Assembly: GCA_958295675.1 (NCBI GenBank)
Contig: OY282360.1
Location: 1 to 50,132 of the forward strand
Length of the DNA: 50,132 bases
Source of the DNA: Minisyncoccota bacterium
GTDB taxonomy: Bacteria > Patescibacteriota > Minisyncoccia > Phycocordibacterales > JABAAK01
Direction: 5' to 3'
In this document: positions 3,314-45,408 of the stretch, one piece after another
Numbering within the stretch: the stretch's first letter is position 1
Layout of the letters: every line of letters begins with the position of its first letter
The notes under the pieces: model-generated
The model's input: only the letters and a program-made list of their open reading frames with translations
Database searches by the model: none
Told to the model about the DNA's origin: nothing
Position numbers and translations under genes: made by a program

Positions 3314-3317
3314 ATTG

Positions 3318-4463: not shown

Positions 4464-4648
4464 AGTAATTTCTTCTGAATTTTTACCTTACATTCATAAA
4501 GTATCAAGTCCTTTATGTACTTTTAGTATACCATTTTAGTAAAATGTTAAATTGATTATTAATCTTGTTCTCTTCTTCTAGAAAGATTTTTCTTCTTTTT
4601 AGATATTTTTACTTTTTTAATGAGTTATTAAAAGTATATAATACATGC

Positions 4649-5254: not shown

Positions 5255-5258
5255 TTAC

Positions 5259-8378: not shown

Positions 8379-11300
8379 ATGAAATTCGGCTATCTCAATG
8401 TTCACAGTCACTATTCCCTACTTCGGGGTATAGCAAAGGTGCCGAAGATACTTGAAAAGGCGAAAGAGATGGGATGCGACACAGTGGCACTCACTGACAC
8501 GCACAACATGTATGGTGCGGTTGAGTTTTACAAAAAAGCGAAAGATATGGATATGCGACCCATTCTCGGTGTCACATTATTTGTTCGAGAAACGGAAAGC
8601 CCGCAGTTTCATCCGATTGTGCTCCTTGCGGAAAACAAGAAAGGATATCACAACATACTGATGCTTATCACCATGGCACACTTCGCTGAGGGTAACACGC
8701 CGTTTCTGACATATGAACAGATAGCGAAGTACAAAGACGGCATCATCGCGCTGTTGCCGGCGCTATACAACCCGGTGCAGCAGGCATTGGCACAGGACAA
8801 TATAGACGGTGCGAAAAAATATCTTAAGAACTACACGAGCATATTTACAAACAACAATGTATTTCTCGGCATATCCCCGCAGAATCCGACACCGAAAGAC
8901 GGTACACATATAAAACCGGCGACTGAAGCGATGGTGAATCTGGCGAAGGAAAACGGTGTCGGTGTCATTCCGCTGCCGCTGGTGTACCTGCTGAACGAGG
9001 ATGACACGGAAGGGCGCGAAGTGCTATTGCGCATTCAGAGTACTCAACTCTCCCCACAGGAAGACGGAGTATTTGAAGACCCATTATTGCTCCCGCAACG
9101 GAAGGATATTGAAGAGTGGGTGCAGACGATCTGTCCGGAATCACTGGAAACACTTGACACTATCATCAAACGATGTGATTGGGAACTTGAACTCGGCACA
9201 TGGGTGTTTCCGACACCTCCGGTACCTGAAGGTGCCGACCGTGTCGCTCTGTTGCGCGAATATATTGATAACGGCTATGAACAGCGCGGATTGCAAAAAA
9301 CAGAAGAGACCGAAGAACGGATTGAAACAGAGCTGCGAACAATTGTCGGACGCGGATATACGGATTATTTCCTCAGTGTGATTGATCTCATTCGGTATAT
9401 GCACAAGAACGGCATTCTCACCACCACACGGGGATCCGCCGCCGGCTCAATGGTGTCATACCTCGCAGGTATCACAAATGTGAATCCGATTGAGTACCAG
9501 TTGCCGTTTGAGCGTTTTCTGAACCCGTTCCGCCCTTCCCCGCCCGATGTTGATTTAGACATTGCTGATAATCGACGGAACGAGGTGATTGACTACATTA
9601 CAGAACGATTCGGGAAAGAGAAGGTGGCGCAAATCGGCACACTAGGAACCATGATGGCCCGGGCGGCGGTACGGGACACCGCGCGGGCGCTCGGGTATTC
9701 ATACATGAACGGCGATCGTATCGCCCGACTGATACCCATGGGCGTACAAGGCAGCCCTATGTATATTGACAAGGCAATGGATGAGGTAAGTGAGCTCAAG
9801 GAACTCTATGAATCAGATGAAACCGCGCGGCACATCATCACGGTCGCCAAGAAAATAGAGGGAAACGCGCGGCACATATCAGTGCATGCCGCGGGCGTGG
9901 TGATATCGCCGACCACAATAGTGGAATACACGCCGCTTGAGCAGGACCCGAAGGGTATAACAAACCGCCCGGTCACACAGTACAACATGCACGCTGTTGA
10001 GGATGCGGGCATGCTGAAGTTTGATATACTCGGCCTCACCAACCTCGCAATTCTTGCCGGCGCAGTGGCACTTGTAAAAAAGGACAGGGGTGAAGATATA
10101 GATGTTGAAAAAATTCCGATGGATGATCCGAAGACATTCACCATGATCAGCCGCGGATATACAACAGGTGTCTTCCAGTTGGGCGGCGACGGCATGACCG
10201 CTGTTCTGAAGAAGATGAAACCGACGACCATACACGACATCGCGGCAATTGTCGCGCTCTACCGTCCGGGACCGATGCGGAATATAGATGAGTATATTGA
10301 ACGAAAACAGGGGCGCAAACCGGCGACCTACCTCCATCCGGACATGGAAAAATATCTGAAAAATTCATACGGCGTGCTGGTATACCAGGACGACCTGCTC
10401 TACACCGCCATTGAGATAGCCGGCTACAACTGGAAAGAGGTGGATGTGTTCAGAAAAGCGGTCGGCAAGAAAATACCGGAACTGATGGCGCAACAGGAAA
10501 AAATTTTTAAAGAGCGCGTGCGGGAGCGCACCAAAATGCCGAACATTAAGGTTGATAAACTATGGAACCTGTTTGACCCGTTCAAGGGATACGGCTTCAA
10601 CAAAGCGCACGCCATGAGTTACGCAAAGGTCGCGTACCAAACGGCATACATGAAAGCGCACTTCCCCGCGCAGTATATGACCGCACATCTCAACGCGGTC
10701 GCCGGTGAAACAGAAAATGTCTCGGACATCATCTATGAATCAAAACGAATAGGATTGAAGGTGCTGCCGCCGGGACTGAATGAATCCGAAGATTTATTCA
10801 CCACAGAAAAAAATGAAAACCGGCATGAGGACATTCGTATCGGACTCGCGACTATCAAGCAGGTCGGTCACGCAGCCGCCGAGGCGATTATGAAAGAGCG
10901 AAAAAATGGCGGTCCGTACGCATCGTTAGAGGACTTTTTCATGCGCATCGCGCCGCACAAGGTTATCAACCGCAGAAATGCAGAAGCGCTCATCAAGGTT
11001 GGCGTGTTTGACGCATTTAAAAAGCGGAATGTGCTTTTAGGAAACATAGAATTACTCCTGCACTGCGTAAAGGACGCGCACACGAATATAGATCAATGCG
11101 CGCTCTTTGATGCCGCGCCGACCGTGTCACTGAATCTCAAACCGGCAACTGAGCAGGTGCATAAAATACAGGAACTCTACTGGGAGAAAGAACTGCTCGG
11201 CGTGTATGTCTCGGGACACCCGCTCCACTCATTTATCCGCGAAGGATTGCGCATAAGCGACATCAAACGCAAGGAGAAAAACAGCAAGGTGCTGACCACC

Positions 11301-11690
11301 GCCGTCATCGGACAGATGAGGCCGTTCAGAAACAAGTCAGGCGAAAAGATGTACTTCATCAGTTTGGAGGATGACACAAACGAAAAAATAGAGGCGGTCT
11401 GTTTCCCGGATGTGGCGAATGACGAAAAGGTGGAGCCGCTGCTCGCGCCCAACCGACCGGTGAAAGTGCGCGGCGGCACCACAATGCGCAATGAGCAGAT
11501 GACCATACGAATCGACAGCATTGAGATGCCCGCACCGGCACCGGCGGCACCGTCAGGAGGGGATAAAGAGAATGTCCTTCAGCGTCAGCCCGTCACGGAC
11601 AACACCGCCCCCGAAAACGATAAGAAGGATGAGCAGTATGCCGGCAAAGAGCAGCGCACCGGCATGCGGATCACGGAATACATCTCTTAA
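8379..11690 (+). CDS. dnaE: DNA polymerase III alpha subunit
   Basis: 1103 aa. PHP domain (NVHSHYSLL), GSAAGS, RFLNPFRPSPPDVDLD, FDILGL, YRPGPM, and an OB-fold region near the C-terminus. The last ~55 aa are low-complexity and overlap a convergent ORF. Confidence 0.95.
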   Translation: MKFGYLNVHSHYSLLRGIAKVPKILEKAKEMGCDTVALTDTHNMYGAVEFYKKAKDMDMRPILGVTLFVRETESPQFHPIVLLAENKKGYHNILMLITMAHFAEGNTPFLTYEQIAKYKDGIIALLPALYNPVQQALAQDNIDGAKKYLKNYTSIFTNNNVFLGISPQNPTPKDGTHIKPATEAMVNLAKENGVGVIPLPLVYLLNEDDTEGREVLLRIQSTQLSPQEDGVFEDPLLLPQRKDIEEWVQTICPESLETLDTIIKRCDWELELGTWVFPTPPVPEGADRVALLREYIDNGYEQRGLQKTEETEERIETELRTIVGRGYTDYFLSVIDLIRYMHKNGILTTTRGSAAGSMVSYLAGITNVNPIEYQLPFERFLNPFRPSPPDVDLDIADNRRNEVIDYITERFGKEKVAQIGTLGTMMARAAVRDTARALGYSYMNGDRIARLIPMGVQGSPMYIDKAMDEVSELKELYESDETARHIITVAKKIEGNARHISVHAAGVVISPTTIVEYTPLEQDPKGITNRPVTQYNMHAVEDAGMLKFDILGLTNLAILAGAVALVKKDRGEDIDVEKIPMDDPKTFTMISRGYTTGVFQLGGDGMTAVLKKMKPTTIHDIAAIVALYRPGPMRNIDEYIERKQGRKPATYLHPDMEKYLKNSYGVLVYQDDLLYTAIEIAGYNWKEVDVFRKAVGKKIPELMAQQEKIFKERVRERTKMPNIKVDKLWNLFDPFKGYGFNKAHAMSYAKVAYQTAYMKAHFPAQYMTAHLNAVAGETENVSDIIYESKRIGLKVLPPGLNESEDLFTTEKNENRHEDIRIGLATIKQVGHAAAEAIMKERKNGGPYASLEDFFMRIAPHKVINRRNAEALIKVGVFDAFKKRNVLLGNIELLLHCVKDAHTNIDQCALFDAAPTVSLNLKPATEQVHKIQELYWEKELLGVYVSGHPLHSFIREGLRISDIKRKEKNSKVLTTAVIGQMRPFRNKSGEKMYFISLEDDTNEKIEAVCFPDVANDEKVEPLLAPNRPVKVRGGTTMRNEQMTIRIDSIEMPAPAPAAPSGGDKENVLQRQPVTDNTAPENDKKDEQYAGKEQRTGMRITEYIS

Positions 11691-15472: not shown

Positions 15473-15545
15473 GGTGCCTATGGTGTAATGGTTAGCACTC
15501 AGGTTTGTGGAACCTGCAGAAAGGGTTCGAATCCCTTTAGGCACC
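15473..15545 (+). tRNA. tRNA-His (anticodon GTG) with encoded G-1
   Basis: Hand fold: G-1 plus acceptor GTGCCTA/TAGGCAC, anticodon stem CAGGT/ACCTG, loop TTGTGGA, T-arm AAGGG-TTCGAAT-CCCTT, discriminator C. Confidence 0.85.
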
Positions 15546-15693
15546 CAATAAAGTTTTCATGGATGGATTTCCTACATATTTGCTACAGTAACTTAGGTTT
15601 CTCTGGCGGTCCTGTCATATGTGAATATAAAGAGATAACAGATCTCTACGACCAACTTCCGCTTACCTACCTTGCAAAACCGGCGCACCCTCT

Positions 15694-16932
15694 TTACTGC
15701 CGCCACTCAAATCGCTCTCGTAAAATATCCTTGTTATGGCTTACCATAATGGAAGATAAATCCTCATTATACATTACCGAAAGATTATTAGTTGCTTCAA
15801 TTGGATTTGAATTTGAGTATATATCCTCAAATTTTACAATCCCGCTATCAACATGCAACACGATGTGGTAATCTTTAATATTTTTGTGTACACTCCGCTC
15901 CATGTATATTAAATTTTTGTAATTGTCTATCAGGATAAATTCCTCTTTGTTCCTCACAAATTTTATAGGAACCACATGATGCAAATCAAAACCATCGCGC
16001 TTGATTACTTTATGATTGGAAAAGTACTCCTGTTTAACACTGAGTCTTCGTTGTTGTCTTGATATTTCAGGAAAGATGCCAAACTTACCTCTGTTTAGCG
16101 CAAAGTTTTTCTCACGAACATCAAAATAAATTGTATTCTTCAATAACTGCATTATCTGTTGAGTTTCATTTCTCCAGTTATGAAAATCTCTCTTTACTGT
16201 TTTACTGCCGTCAAAATTGTCTGGATTGCAATAGTCTTTTAGCATTCTATGAACATTTTTCTTCTGGAGTTCATTGAGATCCCGATACGAACTAAGTAAA
16301 TATATTTTTTCTTCGGCAGTCTTCCGCGTATCGGACAAGATATATTGAAACTCTGTGTACGATATTGAGTCATTACTATACGTACTATGATATATCATCT
16401 CTGCAAGATCAGAAATTGCATCACCAAACAATGTATCTATCTTTCTTGAAAATATATAATATTGACCAACGATTGTTTCTTCTTGTATTAATGCAATCGC
16501 ATCTTCAGTTAATTTTACAAAGTGAACATGAGAACGATTATTTGGATCCAACATTTTTTTATCCTTACCAAACCGGTCTATGAAACCCGCTCGACTGAAG
16601 TCAACAAAGAAATTTTTCTTAAGAGAATTCTCTGTAGTCCTTCCAATTTCACTATTGATTTTCTCAACAACAACAGCAAATTCTGGATGCGTGCCCTCCG
16701 CGCTTTCTCTGATTACATCAGTTGATATATCGCCCAACGGAACAGGTAAAAAATCATCCTGAACAACATCGTACACATTCTTCAAAATCGCTATAACAAT
16801 ATCCATATCATATCTGTTGTGTTGAGAGATTTGTATACCCCGATAATCATCCCGCTGAACCCTTTCAACAATGTATTGCAAGAACTCATTACAGGGTTCT
16901 ATATTCAAAATTTTTTCCAACATCTCTTCCAT
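15694..16932 (-). CDS. Putative restriction endonuclease with a C-terminal HNH-type motif
   Basis: 412 aa, last gene of a three-gene co-oriented cluster with two methyltransferases. The C-terminal region DLHHVVPIKFVRNKEEFILIDNYKNLIYMERSVHKNI fits an H-N-(N)-H nuclease pattern. The segment is AT-rich. Confidence 0.6.
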   Translation of the reverse strand: MEEMLEKILNIEPCNEFLQYIVERVQRDDYRGIQISQHNRYDMDIVIAILKNVYDVVQDDFLPVPLGDISTDVIRESAEGTHPEFAVVVEKINSEIGRTTENSLKKNFFVDFSRAGFIDRFGKDKKMLDPNNRSHVHFVKLTEDAIALIQEETIVGQYYIFSRKIDTLFGDAISDLAEMIYHSTYSNDSISYTEFQYILSDTRKTAEEKIYLLSSYRDLNELQKKNVHRMLKDYCNPDNFDGSKTVKRDFHNWRNETQQIMQLLKNTIYFDVREKNFALNRGKFGIFPEISRQQRRLSVKQEYFSNHKVIKRDGFDLHHVVPIKFVRNKEEFILIDNYKNLIYMERSVHKNIKDYHIVLHVDSGIVKFEDIYSNSNPIEATNNLSVMYNEDLSSIMVSHNKDILRERFEWRQ

Positions 16933-16938
16933 ACATCT

Positions 16939-17784
16939 TTACCCCCTCTTTTTATCAGCAATAAAAAGTGCTTTCTGCATGCTTGGTGATTTAACAACCA
17001 TTTTCCTATTTATACCATGCAAACTATCATTTGCCAAACTAACAAATTCTTCACTACTATCAGCACACAAAAAATTCCTACCTAACACTTTAGAAACCAG
17101 TGCCGTTGTGCCGCTACCAACAAAACAATCGAATACAACATCCCCTTCGTTGCTGCTTGCTCTGATTATCCTCTCCAGCATCTCGGTTGGTTTCGGTGTT
17201 GCATGACTCATTTTCTGAACTTTACCATTTACCTTATTCTTATGCCGTTCACTCGTAATATGCCACACATCCCCACACAACTTGCCGTTCGGATTCGGAA
17301 ACCACCGCTTACCGTTCTTCACAATACCTTTTTTCGCCGCATGCGCAATTCTATCCTTTGATTCATATGCGACACGCACATCGTCAGCATTAAAAACATT
17401 TGGAGACCCTTTTGAAAAAAACAACACTGTCTCCTGATTCGGAATAAATCTGTTTTTCGTATGTGAAAAACCATCTCGCTTATCCCAAGTAATCCAATTC
17501 TGAAACAGCAAATATTCTTTTTGAATCAAGAAATTGAAAATCTTAGCGCAATTATACGGCGTGTTGAAAATATACAAACTGCTACCTCTTTTTAATTTCG
17601 GTAACAGTGCATCTATCCACAAAAAGGTAAATTCAAAAAATGCTTGTTCGCTTGAAAAAGTATCCCAATCGCCTTTATTCAAGAAATATGGAGGATCCAA
17701 AACAGCCAAATCAACACATTCATCCTCAGTTGCTTTCATGAAATCAAAGCAATCAGACACGATAATTTTATTTAAATTTCTCAT
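16939..17784 (-). CDS. DNA methyltransferase, N6A/N4C beta-class (DPPY)
   Basis: Catalytic VLDPPYF near the N-terminus and an AdoMet motif FDCFVGSGTT near the C-terminus, the order of the N6_N4 MTase family. Confidence 0.85.
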   Translation of the reverse strand: MRNLNKIIVSDCFDFMKATEDECVDLAVLDPPYFLNKGDWDTFSSEQAFFEFTFLWIDALLPKLKRGSSLYIFNTPYNCAKIFNFLIQKEYLLFQNWITWDKRDGFSHTKNRFIPNQETVLFFSKGSPNVFNADDVRVAYESKDRIAHAAKKGIVKNGKRWFPNPNGKLCGDVWHITSERHKNKVNGKVQKMSHATPKPTEMLERIIRASSNEGDVVFDCFVGSGTTALVSKVLGRNFLCADSSEEFVSLANDSLHGINRKMVVKSPSMQKALFIADKKRG

Positions 17785-18637
17785 GTTTCCTTGCCTCTTC
17801 TAATTTTTTATTTATAATTTTCGCATAACTTTTCACAACTTCATATCCGATATAGTTTCTACCCCACTCCTTCGCAACCTTAAGCGTGGTGCCAGAGCCG
17901 GCAAACGGATCCAAAACCGTTTCGCCAACAAAGGTAAATAATCGCACGCACCGCTCCACTATTTCCTCAGGCATGAGGGCACAATGGCTTCCGAATGCCA
18001 AATCCTTTTTGTTTGGTACTGGTATATCCCACACTTGTTTTGTGAAGCGCACCCAATCTTTCTGAGTTAACTTACTTTTCTTTTTTATTTCTTCCGGCAA
18101 ATCATTGACGGGTTTACCATCCTTCACAAAAACACTGACAAATTCGGTAGTGTTTTGCGCGTAGAAATTCCTCGGATATGGATAACTGCCGAACATTAAA
18201 CTCTTCCTCGGATTTGTCCTATTCCAAATATACAGGTCATACAAATGCATGTGGCGGATTTTTTTCACTATTGAATTTTCAATGTCGGAAGAGATATTAA
18301 AAATATGCCGGGTATAGTGCTCGCTGTAGTCCTTTTTCGGAACCGGCATTAGTGGTGTATTAATGACAAGTTTTCCATTCGGAGTAAGTACCCGATAACA
18401 TTCTCTCCACACTGACAACACCTCCTTGATGTATGCATCATAACTTTTAATATCACCAATCTGTGCTTTCGCTTTGGTGTGTACCTGTTTTTTTTGGTGT
18501 CCGTCTAAAGCGTAGTTTTTCACATTATAGTACGGTGGACTGGTGACAATGAGGTGCACACTATTGGACGGTACCTCCGCCATACTCTTCGCATCTTTAT
18601 AAAAAACGGTATTGAGAAAATCTATTTTTTTGCGCAT
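17768..18637 (-). CDS. DNA methyltransferase, N4C/N6A beta-class (SPPY)
   Basis: Catalytic TSPPYYN and C-terminal LDPFAGSGTT. It overlaps the next methyltransferase by 17 nt. Confidence 0.85.
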   Translation of the reverse strand: MRKKIDFLNTVFYKDAKSMAEVPSNSVHLIVTSPPYYNVKNYALDGHQKKQVHTKAKAQIGDIKSYDAYIKEVLSVWRECYRVLTPNGKLVINTPLMPVPKKDYSEHYTRHIFNISSDIENSIVKKIRHMHLYDLYIWNRTNPRKSLMFGSYPYPRNFYAQNTTEFVSVFVKDGKPVNDLPEEIKKKSKLTQKDWVRFTKQVWDIPVPNKKDLAFGSHCALMPEEIVERCVRLFTFVGETVLDPFAGSGTTLKVAKEWGRNYIGYEVVKSYAKIINKKLEEARKHEKFK

Positions 18638-26451: not shown

Positions 26452-26528
26452 TGGTGGGCGATGCAGGGCTCGAACCTGCGGCCTTCTGGGTGTAAACCAG
26501 ACGCTCTAGCCAACTGAGCTAATCGCCC
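26452..26528 (-). tRNA. tRNA-Val (anticodon TAC), CCA encoded
   Basis: The reverse complement folds as GGGCGAT-TA-GCTC..GAGC-G-TCTGG-TTTACAC-CCAGA-AGGCC-GCAGG-TTCGAGC-CCTGC-ATCGCCC-A-CCA. Confidence 0.9.
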
Positions 26529-28927: not shown

Positions 28928-29004
28928 GGGCGATTAGCTCAGTTGGCTAGAGCGCTTCCTTGACGTGGAAGAGGTCACAGGTTCAAATCCTGTATCGCCC
29001 ACCA
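28928..29004 (+). tRNA. tRNA-Val (anticodon GAC), CCA encoded
   Basis: GGGCGAT-TA-GCTC..GAGC-G-CTTCC-TTGACGT-GGAAG-AGGTC-ACAGG-TTCAAAT-CCTGT-ATCGCCC-A-CCA. Confidence 0.9.
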
Positions 29005-38260: not shown

Positions 38261-38333
38261 CCGCCCATAGCTCAGTTGGTAGAGCGGCGGCCTTTTAAGC
38301 CGACGGTCCCAGGTTCGAATCCTGGTGGGCGGA
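38261..38333 (+). tRNA. tRNA-Lys (anticodon TTT), C1:G72 acceptor end
   Basis: Acceptor CCGCCCA/TGGGCGG, D-arm GCTC-AGTTGGTA-GAGC, anticodon loop CTTTTAA, T-arm CCAGG-TTCGAAT-CCTGG, discriminator A. Confidence 0.85.
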
Positions 38334-39812
38334 CTTTCCAGTACAACCTACGACACACTCCCTATCGGTCGTGTGGCTGTTGTGTGCGGTGCGGCATGCT
38401 GCCGCACCGTAGAGGGCTTTCCATGCGCTACGCGGGGTGAAACGGACGGTGTGACCTGTAAGAGTGCGGTTCAAGCCAATCTCTTTGAAAAAATCCGACA
38501 AATCAGCAGGGTCGGTGCTTGCAGTGATGTTTTGTATCGCCGTTGCTCGCTCTATCACAGATAGTGCCGGTTCAAGCCACGAATCACCATCGCCTGAGAC
38601 ACTCCGCATCTTTTCCCTAATTTCCGCCTTTTCATCAAGTAAGGTGTTTTTCTTGGCAATATACTCATCACGGGTAATATCACCAGAAAGAGACATATCC
38701 AGAAGACGATCAAGATACTCCTCACAGTGTTTCATATCCCTGCGGAGTGTCTCGGTGCGACTTACTCCCGCCCGTGTTTCTGTCTCGTACAATTCACGAA
38801 GTTTACCTCCAATTTCCTCAGACATGGCGGAAGTGAGAGAAATTTTTTGTAGTGCCGAGCGAACCTCCTCGTCAATTCTTTCACCGCGGACATACTTACC
38901 TGAACATTTTCCTTTTTTCTTGGTGCAATGATAGTAAGTATGTCCTTTTTGAATTGACGAGGTAATGGAACAGCCACAGTAAGCACAAACAAGCAGCTGA
39001 CGAAACGGGTGTTGTGCTGAATCATGTTTTCTCACCTCTCGCCCTCGCTGTTCCATAACCGCTTGGCACTTATCAAAAAGTTTCTTGGTGATGAGTGGTG
39101 TATGCACCCCTTCGTAGGTTTCGCCTCCCCACACCACCAACCCGTAATATATTGGGTTGTTAAGTATCCAATGAACATTGCTTGTGGGAGTGAGCTTGCC
39201 CTGTCTATTTTTAAATCTGAGACATTGAAAGGTGAACTTACCGGTGGCATATTTTTCAAAAAGCGAAACCACGATGGGTGCATACTCGGGGTCGGGGTCT
39301 ATAGTATTTGTATTGCGGTTATTTATATACCCAAAAGGTGCTCGTGAAGGATGGACACCTCGTCGCGCCTTATTCCTCATGCCACGGCGCACATTCTCAC
39401 TAAGATTGTCCACATAGAGTTTACTCTGACCGAATGCGAGGGTGAGGCAGAAAATACCATGTGGTGTATTTTCAAAGGTATAAGTTGGAAAGCGCAGGAT
39501 GGTATCACATTGTTCCACCAATTCAACCAACTTCGCACCATCCGTCATGTTGCGGGCAAGTCTATCCGGGTGCCACGCCAAAATACCTGCCGCCTCACCC
39601 TTGGCGATGCGACCAAGCATCGCTTCAAAAACTTTTCTCCCAGATTTCTTGGCGCTTTGTTTTTCAACTAAAACTTCAACAATGTAAATACCGTTCTTGC
39701 GAGCAAAAGCGTGAAGTTCAGACACTTGATCTGGTATACTCTGCACTTGTTTATCTCTGTCATCCGTACTTTTGCGAGCGTAGATAAAAAGTTTTTGTAA
39801 GGATTCGGTCAT
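38295..39812 (-). CDS. Large serine recombinase (integrase)
   Basis: N-terminal resolvase catalytic domain (IYARKSTDD with the nucleophile Ser, and HPDRLARN), a recombinase domain, a zinc ribbon (CAYCGCSITS...YYHCTKKKGKC), and a coiled-coil region. The ORF runs 39 nt into tRNA-Lys, and its TAA stop is complementary to the anticodon loop. Confidence 0.9.
   Translation of the reverse strand: MTESLQKLFIYARKSTDDRDKQVQSIPDQVSELHAFARKNGIYIVEVLVEKQSAKKSGRKVFEAMLGRIAKGEAAGILAWHPDRLARNMTDGAKLVELVEQCDTILRFPTYTFENTPHGIFCLTLAFGQSKLYVDNLSENVRRGMRNKARRGVHPSRAPFGYINNRNTNTIDPDPEYAPIVVSLFEKYATGKFTFQCLRFKNRQGKLTPTSNVHWILNNPIYYGLVVWGGETYEGVHTPLITKKLFDKCQAVMEQRGREVRKHDSAQHPFRQLLVCAYCGCSITSSIQKGHTYYHCTKKKGKCSGKYVRGERIDEEVRSALQKISLTSAMSEEIGGKLRELYETETRAGVSRTETLRRDMKHCEEYLDRLLDMSLSGDITRDEYIAKKNTLLDEKAEIREKMRSVSGDGDSWLEPALSVIERATAIQNITASTDPADLSDFFKEIGLNRTLTGHTVRFTPRSAWKALYGAAACRTAHNSHTTDRECVVGCTGKSAHQDSNLGPSA
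38331..38520 (+). repeat. IR-A1: left copy of a perfect 190-bp inverted repeat (contains the 3' end of the recombinase gene)
   Basis: In my hand alignment the sequence is identical to the reverse complement of 39859..40048. ORF-track entries 38325..38564(+) and 39809..40054(-) translate identically across it. Confidence 0.9.
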
Positions 39813-39858
39813 AGTAAATGAATTATATCATACCGACCCCGTCTCACTAACAACACAA

Positions 39859-40048
39859 AAGCACCGACCCTGCTGATTTGTCGGATTTTTTCAAAGAGAT
39901 TGGCTTGAACCGCACTCTTACAGGTCACACCGTCCGTTTCACCCCGCGTAGCGCATGGAAAGCCCTCTACGGTGCGGCAGCATGCCGCACCGCACACAAC
40001 AGCCACACGACCGATAGGGAGTGTGTCGTAGGTTGTACTGGAAAGTCC
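39859..40048 (-). repeat. IR-A2: right, inverted copy of the 190-bp repeat, 46 bp upstream of the recombinase start codon
   Basis: It is the reverse complement of 38331..38520. ORF 39878..40099(+) repeats the last ~55 aa of the recombinase (DFFKEIGLNRTLTGHTVRFTPRSAWKALYGAAACRTAHNSHTTDRECVVGCTGKS). Confidence 0.9.
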
Positions 40049-40219
40049 TCTCACCAGATTGCGTTGGAACTAAGGCTATACCTGAAATCCGGCAATTAAG
40101 TCGCTCCGCTTACTTTGGGGACTTGCTGCGCAAGACCCCTCCGTGCGCTCCGCTCCCGCGCCAATCACCGCCGGCATTTTCTTTTTCAAATTCCTCCGCC
40201 GCCCAACCCCGCGTGCTCG
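40044..40219 (+). repeat. IR-B1: left copy of an imperfect ~175-bp inverted repeat flanking the RM+SIR2 cassette
   Basis: It aligns by hand with the reverse complement of 43761..43935. The first 30 nt are identical (AGTCCTCTCACCAGATTGCGTTGGAACTAA), followed by scattered substitutions and then loss of similarity after CGTGCTCG. It is GC-richer than the cargo. Confidence 0.75.
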
Positions 40220-40540
40220 CCGCCGTCTGTTTCTGTTCTTTTTGCTTGAAAAGGTGGGGGTTTGGGGTTTCTCATTTAACCCAGTAGCACGCGAACCAAC
40301 AGCAAAAGAAAATTTTGGTGTTGGCGAGGAGGAGGAACCAACAGTAATCCGCCCGTGAATCTCCCGACAGGGTTTTCACGGGCGGATTTCCCTTTAATGA
40401 CAATTTTACCTATATTTTACTTGCTAAAAACAGACTTGATCAAATTCTCCTTAGATACTAAAATATGGATGTAGTACTTGATTAGAGTGTGGATAGCTCG
40501 CTCTTGATCAAATAAGGTGTATGAATTAAAATATAAATAT

Positions 40541-41335
40541 ATGGCTTCTTCAAGTATGAAAAAAAACAGAGTCCATAACGGCGATATTATGGATCTATTG
40601 AAAGAATTACCAGCTAACAGCGTAGATATGGTTTTTGGTGACCCTGATTATAATGTTGGCATAAACTATGACGGAAAAAGGTATACAAAAAATTTTGAAG
40701 AATACGTTGAATGGTACATAAACCTAACAAATGAATGTATGCGAGTATTAAAAAAACAAGGAAATGCTTTTATGATAAATTATCCAAAACAAAACGCACA
40801 CCTACGCGTGAAATATTTGGATATTCATTACCCATTAACCACAGAATATGTATGGGTATATAACACAAATGTGGGACACACACCAAAACGATTCACGACG
40901 GCACACAGAAGCATATTACACATACGCCCTTCAAAAGATAATAAGTTTTTTAAGACCCAAGTTGCTCAACCATATAAAAATCCAACAGATCGGAGAATAA
41001 AAAATAACATAAAAAATGGATCAAAAGGACGAATGCCTTACTCATGGTTTGAATTTAATCTGGTAAAGAATGTCAGCAAAGAAAAAACGCTCCACGCATG
41101 TCAAATACCACAAGATCTATCGGAGCTCCTGATAAAATCATGTACCAAAAAAAATGATACTGTGTTGATATTGTTCGCTGGAAGTGGTGCGGAATTGGAG
41201 GTTTGTAAAAATCTTGAAAGAAATTTTCTCTCGGCTGAAATGCATAAAAAATATTACAAAATGATACAAGAACGATTAAAGAACGGATCAGTGCCCAACA
41301 AATACAAACTAAAAAATGGAAAAAGATGTTACTAA
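40541..41335 (+). CDS. DNA methyltransferase, N6A/N4C beta-class (variant DPDY catalytic motif)
   Basis: ORF 40517..41335 (GTG). I chose the first ATG, at 40541. It has the VFGDPDYNVG catalytic motif and a C-terminal AdoMet motif ILFAGSGAELE. It is convergent with the next gene and overlaps it by 4 nt. Confidence 0.8.
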   Translation: MASSSMKKNRVHNGDIMDLLKELPANSVDMVFGDPDYNVGINYDGKRYTKNFEEYVEWYINLTNECMRVLKKQGNAFMINYPKQNAHLRVKYLDIHYPLTTEYVWVYNTNVGHTPKRFTTAHRSILHIRPSKDNKFFKTQVAQPYKNPTDRRIKNNIKNGSKGRMPYSWFEFNLVKNVSKEKTLHACQIPQDLSELLIKSCTKKNDTVLILFAGSGAELEVCKNLERNFLSAEMHKKYYKMIQERLKNGSVPNKYKLKNGKRCY

Positions 41336-42150
41336 TTTCTCACAATCCTATATTCCGCATTCTTTATTAAAGACAGAGAGGACATATCGTACGGCTCAGT
41401 AAAGGTGTATTTATAAAGACGGATGATTGATCCTGTGCTGGTTTGTCTGCGCAACAAATAGCAAGCATTCAAATCAGATATTGCCAATCCCTCTTTTTTA
41501 TGCTTTGTATAATACAGAAAGGGTAAATATATTTGAGAAACAGCAAAATCTTTTGGAAAACCATTTTTTGCCTCAAAAACAGTCACTATACCATTCTCCT
41601 CTGCTGTCATATCTATCTCGATCTGTTGATTATTGAGAGAAACCCTCTCACCCCCTATGTAATATGTTGCGGTCAAATTCGTCCTATGTGAGTTATATAT
41701 CTTTGGCGTCGCAGCAACTTCGCTATACAAAAAATCATGCATTATCCTTTGGTTATAGGCGACCGACAGTATATTTGATTCACTTGTATTCAATTCATTA
41801 AGAATGCTTGCTCTATAATTTCTTTCTATCACATTTTGTATATCCTCAAACACATGATAGCCATACTTCACACCCTTCACAAATTTATGTCTCCCCTTTC
41901 CAAGGTGAACAACAAAGTAATCATTATTTCGCAATACCGGAGGGAGTTTTTCTGTATTATCTATATGAAACACATCAAATGGATTTTGAAACCCCGTTTT
42001 CCTGCAAACACTCTTGACTAGTTCATTATCAAAAACTAAATCACTTGTAAACTGTGCGCTGTCGCCGCCACTTCCTTCTTGTACTTTACCACCACAACAA
42101 CGCGAAAAAATCTCTTCTTGTGTTTGTTGTTTTTTGCTTGGTTGGGGCAT
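41332..42150 (-). CDS. Putative type II restriction endonuclease (PD-(D/E)xK)
   Basis: 272 aa, tail-to-tail with the methyltransferase. It has a candidate D...E-x-K motif (IEIDMTAEENGIVTVFEAKNG). The call rests on context plus this motif. Confidence 0.5.
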   Translation of the reverse strand: MPQPSKKQQTQEEIFSRCCGGKVQEGSGGDSAQFTSDLVFDNELVKSVCRKTGFQNPFDVFHIDNTEKLPPVLRNNDYFVVHLGKGRHKFVKGVKYGYHVFEDIQNVIERNYRASILNELNTSESNILSVAYNQRIMHDFLYSEVAATPKIYNSHRTNLTATYYIGGERVSLNNQQIEIDMTAEENGIVTVFEAKNGFPKDFAVSQIYLPFLYYTKHKKEGLAISDLNACYLLRRQTSTGSIIRLYKYTFTEPYDMSSLSLIKNAEYRIVRN

Positions 42151-42240
42151 AATTATATTCTACAACAAAAATGCGGTTGGTGTTATTGGGACAATTGCTT
42201 CTATATATACAAAACAAAAAGAGGTGGTAATATAACTTAT

Positions 42241-43314
42241 ATGCATGTCGTTATTGTTGGAGCCGGAGCAAGTATTGCTTGTTATGAGGACATAAGAGAT
42301 AAGAGTGACTTGCCACAACTGCCGTCAATGGACAACTTTATTGATGTGGTGGGTTTAGCAAGTGTGTTTGAAAAATATGGACAGCAAGTGCCGAATGAAA
42401 ACATAGAGGTGGTGTACTCACGACTACAGAAAGAAGGTAATAACGCCCTTATCAAAGATTTGGAAGATGAAATTTTTAAGTACTTCTGTTCAATGCGATT
42501 ACCTGACAACGAAGTGACGGTATATGATAAATTAATATGCTCATTGGACCCAGGATGTGGTGATATGATATTTAGTTTTAACTGGGATCCTTTGTTAATA
42601 CAAGCGCTGATACGCAACCAAAAAACACTAAATGATCGTGCGCCTCGGATAAGATTTTTGCACGGCAATGTCGGGTTTTGTTATTGTGATAACTGCGATC
42701 CGATGAATAGAATGCAGAACATAGAGAACAAGCCGGTTGAGAGTCTTAGATGTCCGACCTGTGGAAACATGGTTAAAACACAAAAATTACTATATCCTGT
42801 GGAGAATAAAGACTACGCAGAAACCGATTTATTGAAGATTGATTGGAAAGAATTTGATGAATCGTTGCGTCGAGCAAATATAGTGACAATCTTCGGATAT
42901 AGTTGCCCTAAAACAGATGCTGAAGCAAGGAGACGATTGGAAGAGGCATTCAAAGAAAGAAATAATGGTCCAGCTAAGCCCGATTTATATTTCATTAATA
43001 CAACAGAAGAAAAACAATTGAAGGAGAATTGGGATAATCTAATATTTGCGAATGCTGAAGGTGAATATACAGATTTTTTTAAAAAAATGGATGAACATCC
43101 AATATCACACTGGCCACATATGTTCAGTATTTTCTGGGTGTGTGGTTATTTGCTTTCCAATCCATATAGTGGACAAGGTATCTTGAAAGATAGTAAAATT
43201 ATTGCAATGAGAAAGAGATACGAAAAAACAAAATCGCTTCAAGATTACCAGGCGTATATCAGCCACATCATTGAACTGGACACACCACACAGAGAACAGT
43301 TTAAAAAGCGGTAG
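42241..43314 (+). CDS. SIR2-like (sirtuin-fold) protein with a Cys4 zinc ribbon
   Basis: ORF 42079..43314. I chose the ATG at 42241, which is preceded by GAGGTGG. It has a Rossmann start VVIVGAGASIA, FSFNWDPLL (equivalent to the TxNYD motif), a catalytic-His context RFLHGNV, CDNCDP...CPTCG, and IFGYS. Confidence 0.75.
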   Translation: MHVVIVGAGASIACYEDIRDKSDLPQLPSMDNFIDVVGLASVFEKYGQQVPNENIEVVYSRLQKEGNNALIKDLEDEIFKYFCSMRLPDNEVTVYDKLICSLDPGCGDMIFSFNWDPLLIQALIRNQKTLNDRAPRIRFLHGNVGFCYCDNCDPMNRMQNIENKPVESLRCPTCGNMVKTQKLLYPVENKDYAETDLLKIDWKEFDESLRRANIVTIFGYSCPKTDAEARRRLEEAFKERNNGPAKPDLYFINTTEEKQLKENWDNLIFANAEGEYTDFFKKMDEHPISHWPHMFSIFWVCGYLLSNPYSGQGILKDSKIIAMRKRYEKTKSLQDYQAYISHIIELDTPHREQFKKR

Positions 43315-43760
43315 ACAGGCACATTTCTCCAAAATCAAAATATCTAAAATATCAAATTTTATACACGCAATACACAAAATCTTTTTCCTCATACCCAGAA
43401 ACACCGAAAATGCCAACCCGATACACATGAAATGTCAACGGAGAACACAGCATTTCCGACTCCAGACTTTTGCGAAGCAAAAGGATGGAGTGGGAAAAAC
43501 GGAACAAAGCGTTCCGCACCTCGCGGAAGAGTGAAAAAATGGCGAAGTGTTTGTGTATACAACTGCTTCGCTGTTTTTGAACAAGCGAGGTGCGGATCTG
43601 CGGAGTGGAGTGGTGCGTTTCTTATATACCAAGCCCTTCCGCCGTCTCATTTTCTTTTACCACTTCCCTCGTGCACGGAGCGGTGTTCCCCAACCAGACA
43701 AACACCCCATCGCCGCACATCACTCTACTGGTACTTCCCATCACCTCTACTGCACCGCGA

Positions 43761-43935
43761 CGAGCACGCAGGGATGGTGCGCGAATTGAAAGGAAAAAGA
43801 AAATGTTCGGCGGTTGGGCGAGGGAGCGGAGCGAACGTAGGGGTCTTGCGCAGCAAGTCCCTGGAGTAAGCGGAGCGACTTAATCACCGGATTTCAGGTA
43901 TCGCATTAGTTCCAACGCAATCTGGTGAGAGGACT
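43761..43935 (-). repeat. IR-B2: right, inverted copy of the imperfect ~175-bp repeat
   Basis: Its reverse complement aligns to 40044..40219. It ends with ...AATCTGGTGAGAGGACT, which resembles the 3' end of tRNA-Lys (AATCCTGGTGGGCGGACT). Confidence 0.75.
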
Positions 43936-43968: not shown

Positions 43969-45123
43969 CTAATTAGTAAAAATCTCTATATATCTCCTAT
44001 ACTCATACATCTGTGACCGACTCTTCTTTTTTCTGGGACTGAGAATATTCAATGCGACCATTCTGTTAATCGCAGTTTGAACTTTGACCCTGCTAAGACC
44101 TGTCTCCTTTTGAAGATCCGAGTTTGTTGTAATAGGAACCCGATAAAGATAATTCAATATTTTGAGCACATTCTCCGAAGATCGTTTATCAATCTGTACA
44201 ATTTTTTCTCTATCAACATCTCTCAAATCAGAAAGTTGTTCTATGGTCTTAATTGAATCATCTGCTATTTCTATAACCGCATCAAGAAAAAAATCAACCC
44301 AGGCATCAACTTCCCCCTTTGAATAGTGAAACAGCCGCTCATAATAGACATCTCTATATTTTCTGAAATAATGGGAAAGATACAGCAATGGTTTTTCCAT
44401 AATCTTTTTTTCTGCAAAGAATAGTGTTACAAGCATTCTTCCTGTCCGACCGTTCCCGTCAAGAAATGGATGTATGGTCTCAAATTGCGCATGAACAAGT
44501 GCCGCCTGTATAACAGGAGAAAGTAAAAGATTTTTTGAGTGGATGAATTTCTCCAAATCACCAATTGTTTTTGATACCTCAGTGTGTGGCGGAGGAATAA
44601 AGCGTGCGTCTGATATATTTCTCCCTCCTATCCAATTTTGAGAGGTTCGAAACTCGCCGGGTGTGTTGCTTGGATTGCTCGTTCTCGCCCCGGACATCAG
44701 GGTAAAATGCATCAATTTTATTAGTCGCTCACTAATAGGTAATTTTTTTAATTCGTTGAGCCCTGAATTAAGTCCGCGTATGTAATACAATATATCTTCA
44801 ACATCATCCGGAAGGTATGATGATGATCGTACATTTGATTCCAACACATCTTCAAATTCTGCATTTGTCCCCTCTATTTTACTGGAAGCGGTCGCATCCT
44901 TATTGAGATACATAAAGATAAAAAAATCAACATCAGGAATATGGTGCGCAATTCCATTCAAATGACTCATTTTTGCTCGTGCCTCTTCACTTTTCATGAG
45001 AATGCGCATATCAAACTGCAACATATCCTTTGAAGGAAATTTTTCCGGAATAAAAGATGCGTATCCTTTTGGTTGTTTTATAAAGCGACCCACTAATTTT
45101 CTTGATTTCTTTGTCTGTTCCAT
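43969..45123 (-). CDS. Fic-family protein (AMPylase-type) with an N-terminal inhibitory helix and a C-terminal wHTH-like domain
   Basis: ORF 43969..45159, with the internal ATG at 45123 chosen (MEQTKKSRK...). It has the Fic motif HPFLDGNGRTGR and an inhibitory (S/T)xxxE(G/N) motif in SSKIEGT upstream of the core. Confidence 0.9.
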   Translation of the reverse strand: MEQTKKSRKLVGRFIKQPKGYASFIPEKFPSKDMLQFDMRILMKSEEARAKMSHLNGIAHHIPDVDFFIFMYLNKDATASSKIEGTNAEFEDVLESNVRSSSYLPDDVEDILYYIRGLNSGLNELKKLPISERLIKLMHFTLMSGARTSNPSNTPGEFRTSQNWIGGRNISDARFIPPPHTEVSKTIGDLEKFIHSKNLLLSPVIQAALVHAQFETIHPFLDGNGRTGRMLVTLFFAEKKIMEKPLLYLSHYFRKYRDVYYERLFHYSKGEVDAWVDFFLDAVIEIADDSIKTIEQLSDLRDVDREKIVQIDKRSSENVLKILNYLYRVPITTNSDLQKETGLSRVKVQTAINRMVALNILSPRKKKSRSQMYEYRRYIEIFTN

Positions 45124-45336
45124 ATGTATAAATATAGCATATTTTTCTACATATAACAATGTATATGTGTAAAAATATACAATTTTTACACATTAAATAA
45201 AGCAAGTGTGTAAATTTTTTCAAAACCATAGAAATACGCTTATTTTTCAAGAGATTTTAGTTCTCATAAAATATACATTGCACTGAAAGCACATTCTTGC
45301 CGATCCTATTTGAAACTAAAGTAAAATAAGGAGTAT

Positions 45337-45348
45337 TTTCCAGTACAA
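45337..45348 (+). repeat. Candidate attR core: direct copy of the 12-bp sequence found next to tRNA-Lys
   Basis: TTTCCAGTACAA occurs at 38335..38346 (just after tRNA-Lys), at 45337..45348 in direct orientation, and at 40033..40044 in inverted orientation inside IR-A2. Confidence 0.55.
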
Positions 45349-45408
45349 GACAAAACACGCTTGCTATCGCCCCGCCTTTCAAAAAATAAAATACTATGAC
45401 CGAGTTCT

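Follow-up and report, generated by a model that had tools for sequence, protein, structure and literature searches.

A large serine recombinase element at a tRNA-Lys 3' end carries an inverted internal attP site and a putative spare copy of the recombinase gene 3' end

In a stretch of 50,132 nucleotides from a Minisyncoccota bacterium (the window; contig OY282360.1), a restriction-modification pair and a weakly Sir2-like gene lie between two imperfect inverted repeats, beside a serine recombinase gene and close to a tRNA-Lys gene. Does the cassette move or invert by itself, as a first-pass annotation of the sequence suggested when it took the repeats for pseudo-att sites or, alternatively, for paired small RNAs, or does it belong to something larger?

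The repeat, given by that annotation as about 175 bp, is real. A repeat search of the whole window, together with alignments, placed its imperfect arms at 40044-40226 and 43754-43935 (IR2), with main arms of 119 nt that are 92% complementary (40044-40162 and 43817-43935) and a weaker extension of 52 nt at 73% (40175-40226 and 43754-43805). The outer 30 nt of both arms are identical (AGTCCTCTCACCAGATTGCGTTGGAACTAA, 30/30) and identity then decays inward, the successive 30-nt blocks from the outer end having 30, 26, 27, 26, 22 and 21 matches; the substitution blocks GGCT/TGCG and CAAT/TGAT described earlier are found in the alignment, as is the shared hairpin GGGGACTTGC-TGC-GCAAGACCCC, at 40117-40139 on the forward strand and, for its partner, 43840-43862. 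G+C content is also higher in the arms than in the cargo genes (55-59% against 36%). The only other long repeat in the region is the neighbouring pair of 199 nt at 99% identity (IR1, 38322-38520 and 39859-40057), which IR2 overlaps by 14 nt (40044-40057) and not by the 5 nt first counted. Identity is unequal within the window, 99% for IR1 and roughly 85% for IR2, a difference that a duplication of a single age does not explain.

Comparison of three sites accounts for both pairs. The short sequence GGACT is common to all three and is the only part of the junction sequence present at each of them. At site A it lies at 38331-38335 (forward strand), between the tRNA and an arm that we call X, and is the crossover region of attL. 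The tRNA is tRNA-Lys(UUU), at 38261-38334 on the forward strand (ARAGORN; Rfam, 71.8 bits); attL takes its B-type half-site from the T-arm and acceptor 3' end of this tRNA, whose 3' end at 38322-38335 reads CTGGTGGGCGGACT. At site B the core lies at 40044-40048 on the reverse strand and, read as the reverse complement, joins Y' to X, which makes this an intact, inverted, internal attP. At site C, 43931-43935 on the forward strand, the core joins Y' to an outside sequence, Z; this is attR and the end of the element. Sites A and B match from GGACT rightwards, and sites B and C match up to GGACT. IR1 is thus two P' arms: X of attL (38336-38520, forward strand), whose reverse strand encodes about 60 C-terminal residues of the recombinase, and X' of the internal attP (39859-40043, forward strand), which lies upstream of the recombinase start and 47 nt from it. 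IR2 is likewise two P arms (Y), the left one (40044-40226, forward strand) belonging to the internal attP and the right one (43754-43935, reverse strand) to attR. Positions 38335-43935 are a single integrative element of 5.6 kb, inserted at the tRNA-Lys 3' end by its own large serine recombinase (LSR).

The likeness of the repeat ends to tRNA-Lys, noted at first pass, also has a place in this arrangement. The outer ends of IR2 both read CTGGTGAGAGGACT and are the P half-site, which mimics the T-arm and acceptor end of the tRNA; the left arm includes a T-loop mimic (reverse complement TAGTTCCAAC). Compared with its place in the tRNA, the GTTC motif of the P arm is shifted away from the core by 4 bp in the window and by 5 bp in most relatives. 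Of 76 homologous loci scored for this, 50 had GTTCGR-to-core distances of 23 nt (P arm) and 18 nt (tRNA arm); a further 24 scored otherwise only through the script choosing a second, inner motif, and in the examples of these that were inspected the outer motif was again at 23 nt. In phage LSR systems (phiC31, Bxb1, A118/LI, SPbeta SprA) the outer half-site motif of attP is likewise set 4-5 bp further out from the centre than that of attB, the published shift being 5 bp, or 4 bp in SPbeta (PMC11722253). By this spacing, the P arm imitates the tRNA end with the canonical attP/attB geometry of LSRs.

The recombinase gene in its integrated form occupies 38295-39812 on the reverse strand and encodes 505 amino acids with Pfam Resolvase, Recombinase and Zn_ribbon_recom domains. 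Its frame passes through the core and ends in codons antisense to the tRNA (KSAHQDSNLGPSA, then stop) and not in the native C-terminal tail, IALELRLYLKSGN, which is encoded by the first 51 nt of Y. Because the core lies inside the reading frame and Y encodes the native tail, the observed insertion exchanges that tail for tRNA-antisense codons. A spare 3' end of the gene is found at 39878-40099 on the forward strand, where a frame open through X, core and Y (a 73-aa ORF with a TTG start) closes with the native end KSSHQIALELRLYLKSGN and a stop; short ORFs equivalent to it have also been called in public data. Its tail codons lie at 40049-40099 in the left arm, the hairpin beginning 18 nt past the native stop codon, and a second copy of them, ending SSHQIALELMRYLKSGD and a stop, lies at 43880-43930 in the right arm, so that the tail frame is open in both Y arms of the window. 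Across homologous loci the recombinase frame passes through the core in 117 of 123, the tail is conserved in its attP context, and its stop position is constant although TGA, TAA and TAG all occur. Between the window and one related locus (L001) the tail differs by synonymous changes, and in 33 sequences its in-frame pN/pS was 0.31, the other forward frames giving 0.95 and 1.31, although a low value (0.35) was also obtained in one antisense frame. The inverted internal attP thus keeps a complete spare copy of the gene 3' end. The first-pass annotation had allowed that the repeat could be a fragment of a known gene duplicated by chance; the arms do hold a duplicated gene end, but the duplication is read here as being by design and not of chance origin.

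Conservation of the tail partly coincides with that of a DNA motif, CGAAC, which encodes R-T.

This coding content bears directly on the proposal that the arms are paired small RNAs or a structured cis-regulatory RNA. Each arm has a GC-rich hairpin, and GC-rich palindromes whose stem sequences differ recur in the P arms of other loci. Against this, both arms code for the recombinase tail in their outer 51 nt, and the hairpin changes position with subfamily, falling inside the tail codons in the subfamily with about 1 kb of cargo. Further, Rfam returned nothing for the arms, whether at the gathering threshold or with E <= 1, and promoter-like and terminator-like signals in them do not exceed shuffled expectation. 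An RNA role is very unlikely.

The layout was then compared over 152 non-redundant homologous loci, mostly from Patescibacteria and each fetched by way of its recombinase. The recombinase-flanking repeat is present in 128 of them (109 of the 116 in which both arms have room), with a median length of 100 nt and a median identity of 99%; its outer end is overlapped in 101 loci by a convergent tRNA, and 13 amino-acid types are represented among these tRNAs. Among the 66 loci for which 2.5 kb or more of upstream sequence is available, 44 have the second repeat adjoining the first and 22 have none within the contig; the overlap of the two is 4-7 nt in most loci. The three junctions are exactly B-o-P', P-o-P' and P-o-B' in 29 loci. 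This layout is shared by more than 100 related elements from uncultured bacteria, ultra-small ones among them, and we found no published description of it.

Could the internal attP be a functionless leftover of tandem or nested insertions, that is, of two successive elements since decayed? Serial insertion at one tRNA does occur: beyond its far Y arm, L001 has an X-like arm and recombinase fragments, L137 and L161 have a recombinase or a remnant beside a foreign Y arm, and the window itself has a decayed X-like (P'-arm-like) remnant at 45330-45369 (forward strand; 73% over 40 nt) at the far edge of the tRNA-Lys island. Tandem insertion, however, would leave attP-like junctions in direct and not inverted orientation, and in 128 of 152 loci, from several phyla, the internal site is inverted and occupies the same position, about 50 nt upstream of where the recombinase gene begins. 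Its constant position and the near-perfect arm copies argue that it is inherited and maintained and not accidental, and we regard a mere leftover as very unlikely.

Between the Y arms of the window lie a Type II N4/N6 DNA methyltransferase (40517-41335, forward strand; Pfam N6_N4_Mtase, E = 1e-35; PADLOC MTase_II, E = 4e-119), a putative Type II restriction endonuclease (41332-42150, reverse strand; DUF6996/DUF6997; PADLOC REase_II, E = 9e-14) and a protein of 357 aa counted from the first ATG (42241-43314, forward strand). The last is weakly Sir2-like: no Pfam match was found, its seven best PDB sequence matches are all sirtuins at E = 0.2-0.9, and NCBIfam CobB/deacylase models reach E = 2e-4, far under their cut-offs. 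Homologous repeats in other loci do flank other cargo, as the first-pass annotation had proposed to check, and cargo is unrelated even in elements that are otherwise 80-88% identical. The slot between the Y arms thus appears to be freely exchangeable, holding here the restriction-modification pair and the Sir2-like gene.

Such exchange, between otherwise close relatives, is also what would be seen if the cassette were an independently mobile or invertible sub-module, a non-autonomous unit with the Y arms as its terminal inverted repeats that is flipped (phase variation) or moved alone by the neighbouring recombinase. The arms are inverted and end in the recombinase core, L019 shows that arms can be combined across subtypes, and by reasoning an inversion between sites B and C, which have the same P half-site, would regenerate the same types of site. 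The arms are indeed parts of att sites of the adjacent LSR, but that they bound a separate cassette is not supported: the left one has no free end, being joined through the core to an X arm as half of a complete attP, and the right one forms the attR of the entire element, which comprises recombinase and cargo. Recombination between attP and attR is not a reaction of canonical large serine integrases. No cargo inversion was seen, the orientation being the same in all 23 loci inspected in the subfamily with about 1 kb of cargo, and no Y-flanked cassette lacking a recombinase was found, though all loci were fetched through the recombinase, which makes this a weak test. In addition, L081 and L084 share an identical 6.6-kb stretch that begins inside the far Y arm, spans the cargo and the recombinase and reaches the X arm; it lies beside two different right-hand flanks, which argues that the unit moves as a whole. 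Independent movement of the cassette is therefore unlikely. The probable reading of the locus is an LSR element with an inverted spare attP, a spare gene 3' end and a free cargo slot.

If this is correct, excision by attL x attR recombination would give a circle in which two inverted attP copies lie between the recombinase segment and the cargo segment, and would restore the full-length recombinase gene. The exchange of tails upon insertion probably disables or re-tunes the enzyme, which would give control of directionality without a separate factor. The spare 3' end could serve to restore full-length enzyme through inversion between the X arms; alternatively, insertion via the other attP might restore it, or the spare may be expressed as a small C-terminal protein acting in trans. 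For this element neither an excised circle nor an empty tRNA-Lys site nor an inverted form was observed, and exact-protein look-ups returned no other copy of this genome.

The first of these roles corresponds to a two-state switch, in which the recombinase or RecA inverts the recombinase segment between the X arms. In one state the gene body would end in the junk tail on the tRNA side and lie antisense to tRNA read-through; in the other it would be joined to the spare native tail and lie downstream of the tRNA promoter. On this view the need for the spare to carry the tail would be the sole reason for the Y repeat. The near-perfect X arms (family median and window both 99%) and the completeness and coding constraint of the spare are consistent with this. 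So is the recombinase being co-directional with the tRNA in L033 and L079, but these are the only 2 of about 130 loci to show it and neither is clean: the usual orientation is found in a twin contig that is 100% identical to that of L033, and since both contigs break at the repeat a choice of assembly path could explain the flip, while L079 has no canonical Y arm. We hold the switch as a tentative possibility; it is compatible with the spare-attP reading, not exclusive of it, and bears only on the purpose of the spare.

How does this element relate to known systems? With the phage LSR systems it shares the Resolvase, Recombinase and zinc ribbon domains, a short common core and hybrid attL and attR sites, but its recombinase is only about 25% identical to any phage integrase and scores under the NCBIfam cut-offs for CcrA and XisF. 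In contrast to those systems, the elements are of 2.5-6 kb without phage genes or a recognisable directionality factor, carry a second, inverted attP, have attP within the integrase reading frame, and have repeats reaching 80-200 bp, far more than the 40-50 bp of an att site. In myxophage Mx8 (IntP/attP) and in integration-dependent immunity of mycobacteriophages, attP lies in the 3' end of a gene and integration alters the C-terminus and thereby activity or stability; these are tyrosine integrases of full phages, and they are not known to have an inverted spare copy. Also similar are the archaeal 'suicidal' (SSV-type) tyrosine integrases, whose integrase gene contains att and is broken when integration into a tRNA gene takes place, the intact gene acting as its own directionality control, a trait called exclusive to Archaea in a review (PMC8371274). 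There, however, a tyrosine recombinase is split into large N- and C-terminal halves, whereas the loss here, from a serine recombinase of a bacterium, is of only the last 13-20 codons, and the element retains an inverted spare of the gene 3' end.

Serine invertases (Hin, Gin, Cin, Pin) also have a segment between inverted recombination sites, which for Hin includes the recombinase gene, but they are small serine recombinases with 26-bp sites and an enhancer, and have no integration function or tRNA junction; in the elements described here, orientation variants are nearly missing from assemblies. The predicted circle resembles the yeast 2-micron plasmid (FLP/FRT) in having two target-bearing inverted repeats and two unique segments, one encoding the recombinase; the likeness is of layout only, as FLP is a tyrosine recombinase and the plasmid is a replicon, whereas the element has no replication gene. 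Tycheposons and tRNA cargo islands share site-specific insertion at tRNAs, variable and often defensive cargo and, for tycheposons, serial accretion with decayed remnants; tycheposons have tyrosine recombinases in 910 of 937 cases and in many cases replication genes, and a search of the paper that describes them (10.1101/2020.12.28.424599) brought up neither an attP that is internal and inverted nor a recombinase gene that is split. The remnant at 45330-45369 lies just before a conserved flanking gene and is similar to the X arm of L001.

The first-pass annotation had placed an imperfect inverted repeat of about 175 bp on either side of the restriction-modification and Sir2-like genes next to the large serine recombinase (LSR) gene (38295-39812, minus strand) of the 5.6-kb element at tRNA-Lys. 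A repeat search finds it at the same place, 40044-40162 and 43817-43935 (119 nt, 92% complementary), and follows it more weakly into 40175-40226 and 43754-43805 (73%). Gapped alignment of the two copies, here called the Y arms, agrees that their outermost 30 nt are identical; inward from there the matches per 30-nt block are 26, 27, 26, 22 and 21. The blocks of substitutions between the arms are present as described, as is the hairpin that they share (40117-40139 and 43840-43862), and the arms are indeed richer in G+C (55-59%) than the cargo genes (36%). Each Y arm has CTGGTGAGAGGACT at its outer end.

A second inverted repeat of 199 nt (38322-38520 and 39859-40057, the X arms) encloses the LSR gene and holds its last 60 or so codons; its inner arm overlaps the left Y arm by 14 nt. 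Within the window this LSR-flanking repeat is 99% identical, against about 85% for the Y repeat. Together the arms create three junctions around the sequence GGACT. Site A, at 38331, reads tRNA, GGACT, X, which is attL (B-o-P'); site B, the reverse complement of 40044-40048, reads Y', GGACT, X, which is attP (P-o-P'); and site C, at 43931, reads Y', GGACT, Z, which is attR (P-o-B'). Z is the flank beyond the attR core, reads GAACTAGTGTGAAG from 43936 onward and would directly follow GGACT in the predicted empty site. Since sites A and B are identical to the right of the core and sites B and C to its left, the element (38335-43935), as judged from these junction sequences, holds an intact inverted attP between its recombinase segment and its cargo segment; on the same reading the Y repeat is the pair of P arms and the 199-nt repeat the pair of P' arms. 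The earlier suggestion that the repeat ends are att sites of the adjacent recombinase therefore agrees with the logic of the three junctions.

The protein encoded by the LSR gene (505 aa) has the domain set of this class: PF00239 Resolvase (E = 9e-24), PF07508 Recombinase (2e-13) and a PF13408 zinc ribbon (6e-9), all three matches exceeding their Pfam cut-offs, and its translation contains a candidate nucleophile serine in the motif YARKST. It differs from the Hin/Gin-type invertases, which are small and have a C-terminal helix-turn-helix in place of the Recombinase and zinc-ribbon domains. Phage integrases are only about 25% identical to it, and it scores under the NCBIfam cut-offs for both CcrA and XisF.

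The ends of the Y arms had also been likened to half of a tRNA-Lys site. The tRNA-Lys(UUU) gene (38261-38334) has the 3' end CTGGTGGGCGGA, followed by CT, and the likeness stands; the sequence is a P half-site, an imitation of attB that shows the offset canonical for this class. Among 76 loci of the family described below, 50 place the start of the T-loop mimic GTTCGR at a distance from the core of 23 nt on the P-arm side and 18 nt on the tRNA side. A further 24 of the 76 score -6, the script having taken a second, inner GTTC, and the printed examples among them show the outer GTTCGR at 23 nt. For the window and its closest relative, L001, the two distances are 22 nt and 18 nt respectively. 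On attB half-sites the outer DNA-binding domain of LSRs is positioned 5 bp nearer the centre than it is on attP (4 bp in SPbeta), and this shift of 4-5 bp is what tells the two kinds of half-site apart (PMC11722253). The outer motif of the B-type sites studied here is displaced towards the centre by the same 4-5 bp, and it is because the T-loop mimic is offset as published that the P half-site is read as an imitation of attB; we infer that GTTCGR is the motif of the DBD2/zinc-ribbon. The arms reach 80-200 bp past a normal att site. In the tail-coding P arm of L009, L012 and other loci of the tRNA-Gln/Asn types, two copies of the motif AAATCCGAAC are spaced by about 27 nt, the second being in another frame and less conserved; from its sequence the repeated motif could be a putative accessory binding site.

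Two other explanations had been offered for the Y arms. One made the restriction-modification and Sir2-like genes an independent module bounded by the repeat. Against this speak the left arm, which is half of the internal attP, and two homologous loci, L081 and L084, that are 100% identical over 6.6 kb, a stretch that starts within the far Y arm, spans cargo and recombinase and reaches the X arm. Past the core, L081 (11408-11520) enters a tRNA-Gln gene and L084 (6642-6760), whose X arm has a 36-nt insertion, enters a tRNA-like fragment (GGTTTAACTCCCG); an identical unit beside different flanks argues, at the level of sequence, for recent movement of the whole unit. The other explanation, that the arms encode paired small RNAs, fares no better: only tRNAs reach the Rfam gathering threshold, no Rfam match at E <= 1 lies within 40044-40226 or 43754-43935, and promoter and terminator scans of the arms gave nothing above shuffled expectation. 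Between the Y arm and the methyltransferase gene lies an inverted repeat whose 14-bp arms match perfectly across a loop of 15 nt (AATCCGCCCGTGAA...TTCACGGGCGGATT, 40346-40388), whose sole Rfam match is weak and sub-threshold (P35, E = 0.26).

More familiar architectures were also considered. An insertion sequence or MITE should have terminal inverted repeats and a target-site duplication; the element is bounded by X beside the tRNA and by Y' beside Z, neither being an inverted copy of the other, and there is no duplication beyond the recombination core. A head-to-head dimer of a simpler element is rejected since the repeated unit Y'-core-X is no palindrome and neither unique segment mirrors the other. 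Direct integration of a single-stranded dumbbell intermediate is rejected as well, since strand exchange would leave the chromosome hairpin-capped.

The same arrangement was found in a broad family. Scans of genomes and metagenomes detected 160 loci whose recombinases share 39-47% identity with the window LSR, and removal of eight duplicates left 152; the hosts are Patescibacteria and other bacterial bins. The metagenome scan gave no relative above 47% identity, and no exact protein match was returned for the recombinase, for the Fic gene or for the core gene upstream; neither an excised circle nor an empty site nor an inverted form of this element was seen. The window belongs to a genome of Patescibacteria type, and its closest relative, L001, is a complete Candidatus Paceibacterota chromosome, with a recombinase 79% identical and both island flanks syntenic. 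Its tRNA-Lys site is likewise occupied, with a repeat of 145-164 nt (96-100%) around the recombinase and one of 345 nt (96%) around 5.9 kb of cargo. A recombinase-flanking repeat (median 100 nt, 99% identity) is present in 128 of the 152 loci, or in 109 of the 116 with room for both arms, and in 101 loci a convergent tRNA gene, of 13 amino-acid types in all, overlaps its outer end. A second repeat abuts the first in 44 of the 66 loci with at least 2.5 kb upstream, the overlap in most loci being 4-7 nt. In 29 loci read base by base the pattern of attL, inverted attP and attR holds, so that hybrid junctions with a common short core, as in other LSR elements, are found there as well as in the window; the core consists of the last few tRNA bases, e.g. 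GCACCA, CCGCCA or CAGC. Many contigs stop just beyond the recombinase-flanking repeat, the usual effect of an inverted repeat on short-read assembly. In L019 the internal X arm and the tRNA X arm (9760-10000 and 11300-11470) are from different subfamilies and the recombinase-flanking repeat is consequently missing, which on sequence grounds suggests module exchange between elements at the core.

The attP site lies within the recombinase gene. Of 123 loci, 117 have an LSR frame that stays open through X and continues past the core. After integration the frame proceeds along the antisense strand of the tRNA gene, and the resulting tail varies between loci except for D/E-S-N, which derives from the T-loop and is never absent. 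Along attP, through X, core and Y, the frame leads into a native tail that is conserved across the family. This tail ends in ...SVLNKIRTFFRENPDADF before the stop in the tRNA-Gln and tRNA-Asn subfamilies and in ...IALELRLYLKSGN before the stop in the window, and reads ...SILELVRTHFAACGG... in the largest subfamily and ...VALELKKHF... in L001. The window LSR would thus end natively in ...KSSHQIALELRLYLKSGN and ends, as integrated, in ...KSAHQDSNLGPSA, the insertion having replaced the native last 13 residues with DSNLGPSA. The tail is replaced in about 130 other loci too, and only the last 13-20 codons are touched in the family.

Several observations point to coding constraint on the native tail. 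Among 33 distinct sequences of the tRNA-Gln/Asn type the stop position is fixed while TGA, TAA and TAG are all used, and pN/pS is 0.31 in the LSR frame compared to 0.95 and 1.31 in the other forward frames, with a similarly low 0.35 in one antisense frame; this last value, and the overlap of CGAAC (coding for R-T) with the DNA motif, qualify the evidence for constraint. The window and L001 differ synonymously in 4 of the first 6 tail codons. The tail frame is open in both window Y arms, to the stop after ...SSHQIALELRLYLKSGN in the internal arm and after ...SSHQIALELMRYLKSGD in the far arm, and the substitution blocks of the first-pass annotation are amino-acid changes inside the LSR tail. The internal attP therefore holds a complete second 3' end of the LSR gene, termed the spare, as an open frame of 73 aa (39878-40099); spare copies are called as ORFs of 51-86 aa in public data. 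When the C-terminal 85 aa plus tail were used as the query for intact full-length enzymes, only short ORFs (spares), C-terminal fragments and one decayed remnant were returned.

The repeat does flank other cargo elsewhere. Elements that are 80-98% identical in the recombinase segment and arms carry unrelated cargo, and the cargo slot is exchangeable between elements. The usual cargo is one gene, identified by Pfam as a SAM methyltransferase, an ADP-ribosyltransferase, a Na/Ca exchanger, an SRPBCC or DKNYY protein, or a protein of no known family. The slot was also considered as the seat of a conserved partner gene, e.g. a directionality factor, and this was rejected as the proteins encoded there form no clusters. 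The window element carries a Type II methyltransferase (PADLOC E = 4e-119), a candidate DUF6996/6997 restriction enzyme (E = 9e-14) and a 357-aa protein that is only weakly Sir2-like; all three genes are recent imports at the tRNA-Lys hotspot. L001 carries a helix-turn-helix protein, an AAA_15/AAA_21 ATPase, a Vsr endonuclease and a C-5 methyltransferase. The gene for its 360-aa helix-turn-helix protein is present in two identical copies (3891-4973 and 17075-18157), one of them in the cargo slot, and so is probably an insertion sequence.

In 17 loci of a subfamily with about 1 kb of cargo, four separate stretches of the recombinase gene recur as perfect inverted copies around the cargo, inside the Y arms: the 5' leader, codons 30-39 and 45-52 approximately, and the stretch just upstream of X (in L063, 8767-8794 and 9684-9769 versus 9964-10155 and 11332-11356). 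The pieces are colinear with the recombinase gene when the element is read as a circle. A 28-nt piece is nearly invariant although the recombinases of those loci differ by 15-25%, and from its sequence one of the pieces looks like a reused promoter or leader for the divergent cargo gene.

These features suggest how such an element might work. Recombination of attL with attR would yield a circle with two inverted copies of attP and would restore the full-length LSR gene. Only the inverted orientation allows both copies to coexist without deletion of the intervening DNA. The directionality of serine integrases is thought to require a separate factor, and none is recognisable in elements of 2.5-3 kb. 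The exchange of the tail upon insertion probably disables or re-tunes the recombinase, so that such a factor would not be needed. The spare might then be a source of full-length enzyme by three alternative routes: the segment between the X arms could invert; insertion could proceed through the other attP, leaving the gene intact and co-directional with the tRNA; or the spare could be expressed as a small trans-acting protein. Tentatively, then, and with the balance of probability still against it, these elements may be self-disabling shuttles in which insertion through an attP within the gene swaps the tail and locks the element, while the inverted spare that travels with it provides a reset, by inversion, alternative insertion or a trans-acting protein, in place of a directionality factor.

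The excess of loci in which the gene is split (about 130 to 2) fits a stable, locked state. The recombinase segment is flipped in two of about 130 loci, L033 and L079, neither of which is clean, and the assemblies give the consensus only. In L033 the tRNA lies upstream of the recombinase and is co-directional with it, and a twin contig, L126, is 100% identical and has the usual orientation; the pair is rejected as proof of inversion, since both contigs end at the repeat and the assembler could take either path. L079 (9191-11167) has a co-directional upstream tRNA, no canonical Y arm, and non-canonical sequence past the distal core. The cargo orientation is uniform in 23 of 23 inspected loci of the subfamily with about 1 kb of cargo, again as assembly consensus.

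Integration that breaks the integrase gene is known from archaeal tyrosine integrases of the SSV type and has been called exclusive to Archaea (PMC8371274). The likeness lies in a recombination site within the integrase's own coding sequence, so that insertion disrupts the gene; SSV-type "suicidal" enzymes (the Phage_integr_3 clade) are, however, tyrosine recombinases, and the window enzyme, a bacterial serine recombinase, is not a member. No description of a serine recombinase with twin inverted attP sites, or with attP within its frame, was found in the literature, which was covered incompletely, and the architecture may have been described before. An odd local repeat is turned into a general rule for a large and phylogenetically broad family of very small serine-recombinase elements with twin inverted attP and the site within the recombinase gene. 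The tail swap, if true, would be a new answer to the questions of gene-disrupting integration and directionality, would provide a bacterial serine-recombinase counterpart of the archaeal integrases, and would make the elements minimal, widespread carriers of defence genes and other one-gene cargo in Patescibacteria, Omnitrophota and Planctomycetota bins. For annotation, the arrangement accounts for the frequent contig breaks beside these genes in ultra-small bacteria and shows how the boundaries of the elements and of their cargo can be drawn. Furthermore, because each integrated copy keeps an intact attP beside attL and attR, sequence alone suffices to derive the matching attP/attB pairs of over 100 diverse integrases, which is of use for enzyme discovery.

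Elements have also inserted serially at the same tRNA. In L001 an X-like arm and fragments of a recombinase come after the far Y arm, and in L137 and L161 the Y arm of a neighbouring element has given a recombinase, or what remains of one, a native-like tail once more. A decayed X-like sequence (45330-45369, 73% over 40 nt, nearer to the L001 arm) adjoins the conserved flanking gene on the far side of the window island; from its sequence it is probably left over from an earlier tRNA-Lys insertion. Between attR and this remnant, outside the element and inside the tRNA-Lys island, the hotspot also harbours a SoFic-type Fic/DOC defence gene (43969-45159, minus strand; PADLOC E = 1e-105) whose product has a C-terminal winged helix.

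An AT-rich region directly after tRNA-His (15474-18637) encodes a 412-aa protein and two N4/N6 methyltransferases and may be another cargo island; it contains no recombinase and no repeat of the tRNA-His end. A second AT-rich block (2729-7019, 31-35% G+C) encodes a Dam-like methyltransferase and three proteins without a Pfam match. Finally, the inverted pair of tRNA-Val genes at 26452-26528 and 28928-29004 (anticodons TAC and GAC) was scored as a repeat of 77 nt and 78% and is ordinary paralogy.
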